From Clostridia bacterium (GTDB lineage: Bacteria > Bacillota > Clostridia > Acetivibrionales > UBA4821), in NCBI GenBank assembly GCA_041687355.1, contig JAWLCD010000012.1, positions 1,665 to 65,664 on the forward strand: a stretch of DNA of 64,000 bases. Reading direction: 5' to 3'. The translations under genes and the position numbers were made by a program. Positions 4,135 to 5,134 of this stretch are shown here, in pieces (the stretch's first letter is position 1; each line of letters opens with the position of its first letter). The notes beneath the pieces were generated by a model. That model made no database searches, was not told the DNA's origin, and saw only the letters and a list, made by a program, of their open reading frames with translations.

Positions 4135-4593
4135 GTGGAAATAGAAAACTTGAAAAGTGAAGAATATGGAGAACAATATAAAGAACATTTACTTGAACAA
4201 TGGAAAACCTGTGTTGAAATGGCCAATAGTAATAGTGAGCGACGAATCAGTACTAACAATGTATACATCACAGTCAATGCTGCTATTATTGCGTTGATTT
4301 CATTTACGTTTGATTATAAAAGCATACTTCTATCTATAGTCGGAGCAATTGTAAGTATACTGTGGTTAAATTCGATAATAAGCTATAAGAAACTTAATAG
4401 TGTTAAATATCAAATAATAAATGAAATCGAAAAAAAGTTGCCCATATCTCCATATGCCTATGAATGGTCATTGCTTGGAGATAATAAAAAGTATAGGCGA
4501 TTTACACATCTGGAACGAATTCTTCCATGGCTTTTTATTATCCTCTACATAATATGCATATTTTGGCAAGTGGCAATTTGTATTTTTAAATGA
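4135..4593 (+). CDS. Small membrane protein (152 aa, three predicted TM helices), candidate effector partner of the downstream TIR-like gene
   Basis: GTG start follows a GGGGGAGGG RBS. The N-terminus is hydrophilic (..WKTCVEMANSNSERRISTNNVY). Hydrophobic helices lie at about aa 44-60, 63-84 and 129-151. No family could be assigned by eye. Confidence 0.6.
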   Translation: MEIENLKSEEYGEQYKEHLLEQWKTCVEMANSNSERRISTNNVYITVNAAIIALISFTFDYKSILLSIVGAIVSILWLNSIISYKKLNSVKYQIINEIEKKLPISPYAYEWSLLGDNKKYRRFTHLERILPWLFIILYIICIFWQVAICIFK

Positions 4594-4673
4594 ATACATA
4601 CATGAACAATAGTTGTGCAGTAGTATTACGAAAATACATGTAAAAAAATTTTTATACTAAGGAGGTTAATAAA

Positions 4674-5072
4674 ATGTATAATTTATTTATAAGCCATTCA
4701 TGGACTTATTCGGATGCATATGACAGATTGGTTGATCTATTAGATAACGCTAGCTATTTCTCGTATAGAAATTATTCTGTGCCTAAAGATGACCCTATAC
4801 ACAATGCCCCGACACAGTGGCAGCTAAAAGAAGCCATTAAAGCTCAAATGGCTCCTGCCAGTTGTGTTTTAATTCTTGCTGGTGTCTATTCTACATATAG
4901 TAAGTGGATTAATATAGAAATAGACCTTGCGAAAAATGGTTTTTATACTCCAAAACGGATTATTGCAATTGAGCCTTGGGGCTCTGAACGAACTTCACAA
5001 GTTGTTAAAAATGCAGCTGATGAAATTGTTAAGTGGAATACAAGTTCAATTGTTGGAGCTATACGCAAATAA
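4674..5072 (+). CDS. TIR-like domain protein (ThsB / DUF1863-type), 132 aa
   Basis: AAGGAGG RBS precedes the ATG. LFISHSW at the N-terminus and SCVLILAGVYSTYSKWINIEIDLA follow the ThsB-type TIR-like layout (FxSxxxxD ... CVLIG..T....WV.YEI). Confidence 0.7.
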   Translation: MYNLFISHSWTYSDAYDRLVDLLDNASYFSYRNYSVPKDDPIHNAPTQWQLKEAIKAQMAPASCVLILAGVYSTYSKWINIEIDLAKNGFYTPKRIIAIEPWGSERTSQVVKNAADEIVKWNTSSIVGAIRK

Positions 5073-5085
5073 TTGTATAAAAAAG

Positions 5086-5134
5086 AGACCAGTCACTACA
5101 AGCAATTACGCTTGAACATGACTGGTCTTTTTTG
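5086..5134 (+). terminator. Rho-independent terminator after the TIR-like gene
   Basis: 10-bp stem AGACCAGTCA / TGACTGGTCT (5086-5095 / 5119-5128) followed by TTTTTT. The loop is rather long at 23 nt. Confidence 0.6.

Follow-up and report, generated by a model that had tools for sequence, protein, structure and literature searches.

In a scan of approximately 600 million proteins for TIR-based systems, Yirmiya et al. arrived at 29 putative types of Thoeris and verified seven new types, V-XI (bioRxiv 10.64898/2025.12.03.692087, December 2025). The accessible part of their Table S1 contains at least 100 occurrences of the putative effector label '3TM', and the authors name no Pfam family for the 3TM protein. 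The present analysis concerns a window (the whole stretch of DNA that was analysed, 64,000 nt of contig JAWLCD010000012.1 from a Clostridia bacterium) in which two co-oriented open reading frames (ORFs) follow a type I restriction-modification (R-M) locus. ORF1 encodes a small membrane protein of Pfam family PF24838 ('8xMP', octameric membrane protein family) and ORF2 a TIR protein of the ThsB type. Together they probably constitute a Thoeris-type anti-phage signalling module in its two-gene 'TIR + 3TM' form. Judged by sequence relationship, the pair is a further member of this predicted type, catalogued in their Table S1 and Fig. 1C, and differs from it in nothing essential: the TIR of the putative type belongs to the same cluster as ORF2 and its partner is likewise a small protein with three transmembrane (TM) helices.

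Among the verified systems, type V Thoeris (ThsB + ThsF, DUF2270/PF10028) is the closest functional analogue, being also a two-gene combination of a TIR protein and a small effector with three TM helices. For ThsF, the prediction is a homo-oligomeric ring in which ligand pockets lie between the protomers. The present locus differs in that ORF1 gave no match to DUF2270 at E<=10, a comparison made by hidden Markov model (HMM) search only, and in that the type V TIRs tested fall in other TIR clusters than ORF2 and produce 3' cyclic ADP-ribose (3'cADPR). Neighbours of type V TIRs on plasmids, examined for DUF2270, showed type I and type II contexts only. Type VII Thoeris (ThsB + ThsH, SLATT) is functionally close as well, since its effector is likewise a small membrane protein, and the Pseudohongiella type VII TIR is found in the same TIR cluster as ORF2 (42% identity). 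ORF1, however, lacks a SLATT match, and 8xMP carries a third TM helix.

Among characterised TIRs, EcTIR of E. coli 328 comes closest to ORF2, with 61% identity. It belongs to type IV Thoeris (TIR + caspase-like ThsE) and was experimentally shown to make the type IV signal that activates the caspase (Rousset et al., bioRxiv 10.1101/2024.10.24.620036). This signal is N7-cADPR, while TIR relatives of types VII and VIII make canonical cADPR. In contrast to type IV, the effector in the window is a membrane protein, and no caspase-like ORF was found at 4062-5200 or elsewhere in the window. The SIR2-SLOG ThsA effector of type I was not found in ORF1, and neither was the TM + Macro effector of type II: ORF1 is a protein of 152 aa, nearly all helical and TM, with no soluble ligand-binding domain, and the type II TIR family shows no sequence relation to ORF2. 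TM effectors of type II Thoeris, CBASS and Pycsar follow the same logic as the one considered here, in which a nucleotide signal activates a membrane-disrupting effector and leads to abortive infection. General features of Thoeris could be recognised at the locus, namely a ThsB-type TIR with a predicted catalytic Glu and a co-conserved effector gene in the same operon, with a single terminator after ORF2.

ORF2, ORF1 and the '3TM' effector label

ORF2 matched the Pfam family ThsB_TIR (PF08937) with E=3.6e-15, above the curated cut-off. The PADLOC models recognised one half of the pair, as ORF2 matched the ThsB models with E as low as 8.5e-11 and ORF1 matched none. In a sequence search of the PDB, MTH538 was the sole match of ORF2. 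Its AlphaFold2 model (pLDDT 87) has a TIR fold, with MTH538, a Bacillus cereus TIR protein, EcThsB and EcThsB2 as the best structural matches. An earlier reading made from the sequence alone (hereafter the sequence-only reading) had pointed to a ThsB/TIR-like layout with a candidate catalytic Glu in the motif WINIEID. This residue is Glu82, and an alignment with TIRs of Table S1 places it in one column with the Glu that is catalytic in B. cereus ThsB and in the TIRs of types IV, VII and VIII. Glu82 and other TIR active-site positions were invariant in 40 homologues of ORF2 (70-86% identity). By homology, ORF2 is thus a ThsB-type TIR protein with Glu82 as its predicted catalytic residue.

ORF1 matched PF24838 with E=4.8e-35 and 120.8 bits, against a gathering threshold of 30, over model positions 1-135 of 136. 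Because both ORF1 and ORF2 match curated HMMs far above threshold, they are, by this measure, genuine genes and not chance ORFs. No match of ORF1 was obtained in the NCBIfam models or, at E<=10, in a sequence search of the PDB. Its AlphaFold2 monomer model (pLDDT 80.5) is helical throughout (residues 8-57, 62-99, 108-116 and 118-151) and gave no Foldseek match below E=0.8 against PDB and BFVD. Model, hydropathy and charge agree on a polar N-terminal helix followed by three hydrophobic helices, the architecture that had been read from the sequence alone. The same reading had also considered ORF1 devoid of the domains of known ThsA effectors, and indeed no SIR2, SLOG or Macro domain was matched in the Pfam HMM search, so that the gene content of types I and II is not that of this locus. 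Hydropathy and charge suggest that the N-terminal helix is cytoplasmic and is followed by a TM1-TM2 hairpin, then by a basic segment in the cytoplasm (83-129, holding ten Lys/Arg) and finally by TM3, which leads outwards.

A profile search of 1.84 billion representatives (E<=0.001) returned 3455 clusters of 8xMP at 50% identity, from bacteria and archaea. Nearly all members are standalone proteins of 140-200 aa. Fusions of TIR and 8xMP were not encountered among them, and the longer members add N-terminal TM helices and not TIR domains. Invariant residues in a set of 87 diverse members are limited to R37, K91 and E110, while S34, N41, G70, W77, Y84, I95, E99, L102, P103, W111, E127 and P131 are nearly invariant. 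Most of these residues, with a concentration of polar and aromatic ones, fall in the segments predicted to be cytoplasmic. Many homologues carry a short Cys-rich tail after TM3 (e.g. CSCIGG, CPCIGG, CNCN), which is absent from ORF1 of the window. A literature search on 8xMP/PF24838 gave no relevant paper.

The suggestion that ORF1 might be a SLATT-type effector was not borne out. None of the Pfam SLATT models matched ORF1 or 40 of its homologues. A single NCBI record titles an 8xMP homologue 'SLATT-5 domain-containing', and that protein itself matches no SLATT model. Profile-profile comparison (hhalign) with a TIR-associated SLATT_1/DUF4231 profile, which covers the SLATT_1 branch only and was seeded from a Staphylococcus chromogenes plasmid, gave a probability of 18.6%, over the TM hairpin only.

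The TIRs labelled '3TM' in the accessible part of Table S1 fall mostly in the clusters 2734565194 and 2556961318. Of the five '3TM' TIRs compared with ORF2, four, all from cluster 2734565194, share 59-71% identity with it and the fifth shares 45%. Two other entries of this table connect the label to a protein family. The TIR ga0245173_10041630 is 97.7% identical to the TIR of locus L011 (loci from other genomes are given L numbers), which is encoded in the same block as an 8xMP gene, and ga0207756_10010717 is 97.7% identical to the TIR of Halorubrum pHLAC01, encoded directly 5' of a PF24838 gene. As these two '3TM' TIRs are nearly identical to TIRs found beside 8xMP genes, '3TM' can be equated with 8xMP, at least for the TIR clade of ORF2, by way of the TIR identities. 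No later paper testing the 'TIR + 3TM' configuration was found. The novelty implied by the sequence-only reading is consequently reduced: the pair is already catalogued as a predicted type in Table S1, so that one of the outcomes which that reading had named as counting against it, a match to a known system, has partly come about. By its effector the pair falls outside the verified types, as ORF1 showed no SIR2-SLOG, Macro, DUF2270 or SLATT match.

Conservation of the pairing and its mobile element

For the analysis of gene neighbourhoods, one genome per species was used, which gave 30 loci with an 8xMP gene. In 27 of these, one or two TIR genes adjoin the 8xMP gene on the same strand. An ORF2-like TIR lies immediately downstream, on the same strand, in 24 of the 30 loci, and other TIR genes are adjacent in three, Pfam-confirmed in L028 and L029; the TIR call for L031 rests on 83-88% tblastn identity to the TIRs of L028. 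Ten of the 27 linked loci have two genes, 15 have a second TIR and two are ordered TIR-TIR-8xMP. The second gene, present in 15 of the 30 loci, is TIR_2-like, encodes approximately 157 aa and is situated between 8xMP and the ThsB-like TIR; the copies of L013 and L029 were confirmed by Pfam as TIR_2/ThsB_TIR. The window locus, with a bare 80-nt spacer at this place, is a reduced two-gene form.

The remaining three loci (L016-L018), all from Ruminococcus or Oscillospiraceae metagenome-assembled genomes (MAGs), hold an orphan 8xMP gene with no TIR. In L016 this gene lies between ORFs of 359 aa and 127 aa, neither of them TIR-like by tblastn. The orphan loci may be decayed systems or may have a separate role.

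More distant 8xMP genes (27-40% identity) were found on 36 plasmid records, of which 11 were inspected. A TIR gene is annotated beside 8xMP in seven of these, from Haematospirillum, Clostridium perfringens, Synechococcus, Polaromonas, Novosphingobium, Paenarthrobacter and the archaeon Halorubrum, and the 8xMP identity was confirmed by Pfam in three of the seven (Haematospirillum, C. perfringens and Halorubrum). The other four plasmid loci show no TIR-annotated neighbour. The two gene families are thus co-conserved across phyla, from Clostridia to Proteobacteria, Cyanobacteria, Actinobacteria and a haloarchaeon, which answers positively the question of neighbourhood conservation on which the sequence-only reading had made its interpretation depend. 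A search for phage carriage of 8xMP returned a single match, which was the Haematospirillum plasmid record listed again.

Other defence-related genes were seen at several of these loci. The Polaromonas plasmid has the order hsdR-TIR-8xMP-PIN, HEPN and Fic genes lie near the Novosphingobium pair, and L029 contains a type II R-M system. On the C. perfringens plasmid NZ_CP065633.1 (L038, 1540-3853) a co-oriented block caspase-TIR-8xMP-TIR was found, in which the caspase (type IV Thoeris-like) and 8xMP effectors possibly share a signal. An Arsenophonus plasmid carries a related TIR beside a caspase-family gene. On a Rhizobium leguminosarum plasmid (L046, 1-2435) a distant 8xMP gene directly follows the gene of a large NB-ARC-domain protein and not that of a small TIR, so 8xMP may also serve NLR-like sensors.

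The TIR partners of 8xMP belong to at least three different TIR clades, and therefore 8xMP appears as the constant partner and the TIRs as the variable one. Judged from these sequence relationships, the arrangement is that of a single effector to which ThsB sensors of different kinds report. The TIR clade of ORF2 is itself modular, with caspase-like, CMP hydrolase, SLATT or 3TM partners in other genomes, and such partner modularity is the Thoeris pattern.

In the window, the pair makes up the last cargo of an element that spreads horizontally and includes the type I R-M genes as well. Element copies (L001-L010) showed 93-99% nucleotide identity to the window up to a sharp stop at 5193-5196, beyond which all flanks differ. 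The element's gene order was seen again beside many right flanks, at no fewer than 11 insertion sites in different Clostridia (L001-L010, L048-L055). Because the order recurs and the identity stops at 5193-5196, the pair could be recognised as the last cargo. In the copies read, this order is a capsid-like gene, a D5-type primase, an HTH gene, hsdM, hsdS, hsdR, 8xMP and TIR, with the exception of two copies interrupted by insertion sequence (IS) elements. Hosts of the element include Clostridium aquiflavi, C. prolinivorans and an Anaerovoracaceae MAG, and identical copies of the ORF1 and ORF2 proteins are present in numerous assemblies (177 and 253 index blocks, respectively). The left end of the element is outside the window. 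The element may be a phage-satellite-like island.

In the two interrupted copies, IS elements with rve-type and IS110-type transposases (L006, 1581-2657; L054, 780-2063) are inserted right after 8xMP or between 8xMP and TIR. The pair is thus sometimes broken by IS insertion.

Proposed mechanism and alternative explanations

From the observed family assignments, catalytic-residue alignment, conserved synteny and mobile-element context, we infer a pathway of phage sensing, a signal of proposed identity, ligand binding, an oligomeric pore and abortive infection. ORF2 would detect phage infection, and its Glu82 would convert NAD+ into a small second messenger derived from ADP-ribose. By relatedness, this messenger would most likely be a base-linked cyclic ADPR, N7-cADPR or canonical cADPR. 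It would bind to the cytoplasmic face of ORF1, the three-TM 8xMP protein acting as a homo-oligomer, at a site to which invariant residues (R37, K91 and E110) and nearly invariant ones (Y84 and W111) probably contribute. Binding would open or disrupt the membrane, and infection would be aborted. The module and the type I R-M system on one element could in this way provide a layered defence. N7-cADPR can be offered by analogy as a first, weak guess for the signal, because of the caspase-TIR-8xMP-TIR block in C. perfringens. This interpretation, in essence that of the sequence-only reading, which saw a signal generator paired with a membrane effector, is supported by homology and conserved synteny.

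Several points weigh against it. The products of the characterised TIRs nearest to ORF2 differ from one another (N7-cADPR and cADPR), so that the signal is not assignable from the sequence. The predicted effector role of ORF1 is drawn only from its context, with no match in PADLOC and no structural relative in PDB/BFVD, and its putative octameric state is taken solely from the name of the Pfam family. In the work of Yirmiya et al., 'TIR + 3TM' is absent from the 30 operons tested in Table S2, and the authors warn that effector labels are noisy and that the TIR of unverified types may be an NAD+-depleting effector. To these are added the orphan 8xMP genes in three of the 30 species-level loci and the four of 11 plasmid loci in which a TIR-annotated neighbour is missing.

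The warning of Yirmiya et al. on unverified types leads to the main rival explanation, in which the roles are reversed: the TIR would be a toxic NADase that depletes NAD+, and 8xMP a sensor, anchor or regulator, responding for example to a perturbation of the membrane as the phage enters or lyses the cell. TIR domains do act as NADase effectors elsewhere (CBASS, Pycsar, pAgo, SpbK), and 8xMP has no recognisable ligand-binding domain. However, ORF2 is a bare ThsB-type domain of 132 aa whose closest characterised relative, EcTIR, makes a diffusible signal. The interchangeable effectors (caspase, CMP hydrolase) with which its clade pairs fit a constant signal generator. The occurrence of 8xMP with several unrelated TIR clades, often with two TIRs, fits one effector with several sensors, as in multi-ThsB Thoeris. 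Reversed roles are therefore considered unlikely. The same variety of partners is hard to square with the specific antitoxin interface of a non-signalling toxin-antitoxin or abortive-infection pair, in which a holin-like 8xMP toxin would be bound by a TIR-like protein with no nucleotide messenger involved. The invariance of the TIR active-site positions, including the Glu, in 40 homologues also argues for a conserved enzymatic activity. A small membrane toxin beside a small cytoplasmic protein is nevertheless a common toxin-antitoxin layout, the Haematospirillum plasmid pair is found among toxin-antitoxin genes, and neither a fusion nor a ligand-binding domain was found. All in all, this explanation appears improbable.

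A dependence on the upstream type I R-M system, under which the pair would not be autonomous and could serve, for example, as a backup or accessory module requiring HsdR, is given the least credit and seems very improbable. Defence genes cluster without mutual dependence, and most 8xMP-TIR loci of other genomes have no adjacent type I R-M genes, even if the pair follows hsdR with no intervening terminator in every element copy and the Polaromonas plasmid also shows hsdR next to TIR and 8xMP.

Under the signalling interpretation, in which ORF2 makes a messenger for ORF1, 8xMP would be one of the smallest Thoeris effectors known, as a protein of 150 aa would have to bind a nucleotide signal and also breach the membrane. 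A tentative and rather doubtful extension is that 8xMP represents a structurally new class of nucleotide-gated membrane effector, reading the TIR product via an inter-protomer pocket formed by R37, K91, E110, Y84 and W111. If so, the product read by 8xMP would be N7-cADPR, in common with the type IV caspase effector, or an undescribed molecule. The pair would then be the twelfth verified Thoeris type, with an effector family that comprises approximately 3,500 clusters at 50% identity and is found in archaea as well as bacteria. In Clostridia it would be spread in the form of a ready-made 'R-M + Thoeris' cassette, located at the end of an element with capsid and primase genes.

Compared with the 2025 catalogue, the analysis adds that the '3TM' label corresponds, by the TIR identities, to Pfam family PF24838, which is not detectably SLATT or DUF2270, and names residues conserved over the whole 8xMP family as targets for mutation. 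On the C. perfringens plasmid, 8xMP occurs beside a caspase-like effector of type IV, which suggests N7-cADPR as a candidate ligand, and in Clostridia the pair travels with type I R-M genes on one mobile element. Current thinking is not overturned by these results; a predicted system is made easier to test.

Gene layout and neighbouring features

The features of the locus are listed in Table 1. The sequence-only reading had described two co-oriented ORFs directly behind hsdR, each with its own ribosome-binding site and both closed off by one terminator before the convergent SASP gene. All of this was recovered, including spacers of 73 nt between hsdR and ORF1 and 80 nt between ORF1 and ORF2. 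Within the ORF list, no further ORF was present between hsdR and the terminator.

Table 1. Features of the 8xMP-TIR locus and its surroundings in the window.
Feature	Position	Strand	Evidence or remark
Right-hand part of mobile element, 8xMP-TIR pair as last cargo	1-5193		ends at approximately 5193 (...CCCTAAGTGAACGCTTCTTT)
hsdS, 5'-truncated by the window edge	4-963	+	PF01420 Methylase_S, E=4.4e-43
hsdR, type I (EcoR124-like, family IC) restriction subunit	960-4061	+	HSDR_N, ResIII, SWI2_SNF2, T1R_D3-like and EcoR124_C domains
Ribosome-binding site of ORF1, GGGGGAGGG	4120-4128	+	GGAGG core 7 nt 5' of GTG, direct sequence reading
ORF1, 8xMP-family (PF24838) small membrane protein, predicted Thoeris-type effector	4135-4593	+	GTG start, 152 aa
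Ribosome-binding site of ORF2, AGGAGG	4660-4665	+	8 nt 5' of ATG, direct sequence reading
ORF2, ThsB-type TIR protein, predicted sensor and signal generator	4674-5072	+	ATG start, 132 aa
Hairpin terminator closing the ORF1-ORF2 pair	5081-5133		RNA fold
alpha/beta-type SASP gene, convergent to the pair	5222-5419	-	PF00269, E=1.7e-21

Folding of the region 5076-5140 gave the terminator as a hairpin with a 15-bp outer stem and a stability of -27.3 kcal/mol (z=-9.6), which none of 200 shuffled sequences reached. It is flanked by an A-tract on the 5' side and a T-tract on the 3' side and could also be used by the convergent SASP gene. A simple consensus terminator scan gave no match at this hairpin because its loop is longer than 8 nt. 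No comparable hairpin was found between hsdR and ORF1 or between ORF1 and ORF2. A promoter consensus scan for the pair gave no more sites than shuffled sequence, and the pair is transcribed either from a promoter of its own or by read-through from hsdR. Over 4001-5000 the GC content drops to 32%, whereas most of the windows around it have 37-46%. The AT-richness that had been remarked on is therefore real; it is not unique to the pair, since windows at 10-12 kb are equally low.

In hsdS, a perfect tandem repeat of four 12-bp units (GAGCTTACAGCA) at 277-324 corresponds to (TAEL)4 in the central spacer of the protein. The copy number of this motif sets the length of the target-site spacer in enzymes of the EcoR124 family (type IC). 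The target-recognition region of hsdS (366-811) differs among the element copies.

On the other side of the pair, a gene for a Na+/H+ exchanger with a C-terminal TrkA_C domain is split into the overlapping ORFs 5640-6434 and 6139-7095. These cover model positions 2-192 and 200-367, respectively, which suggests a frameshift, a pseudogene or a sequencing error.

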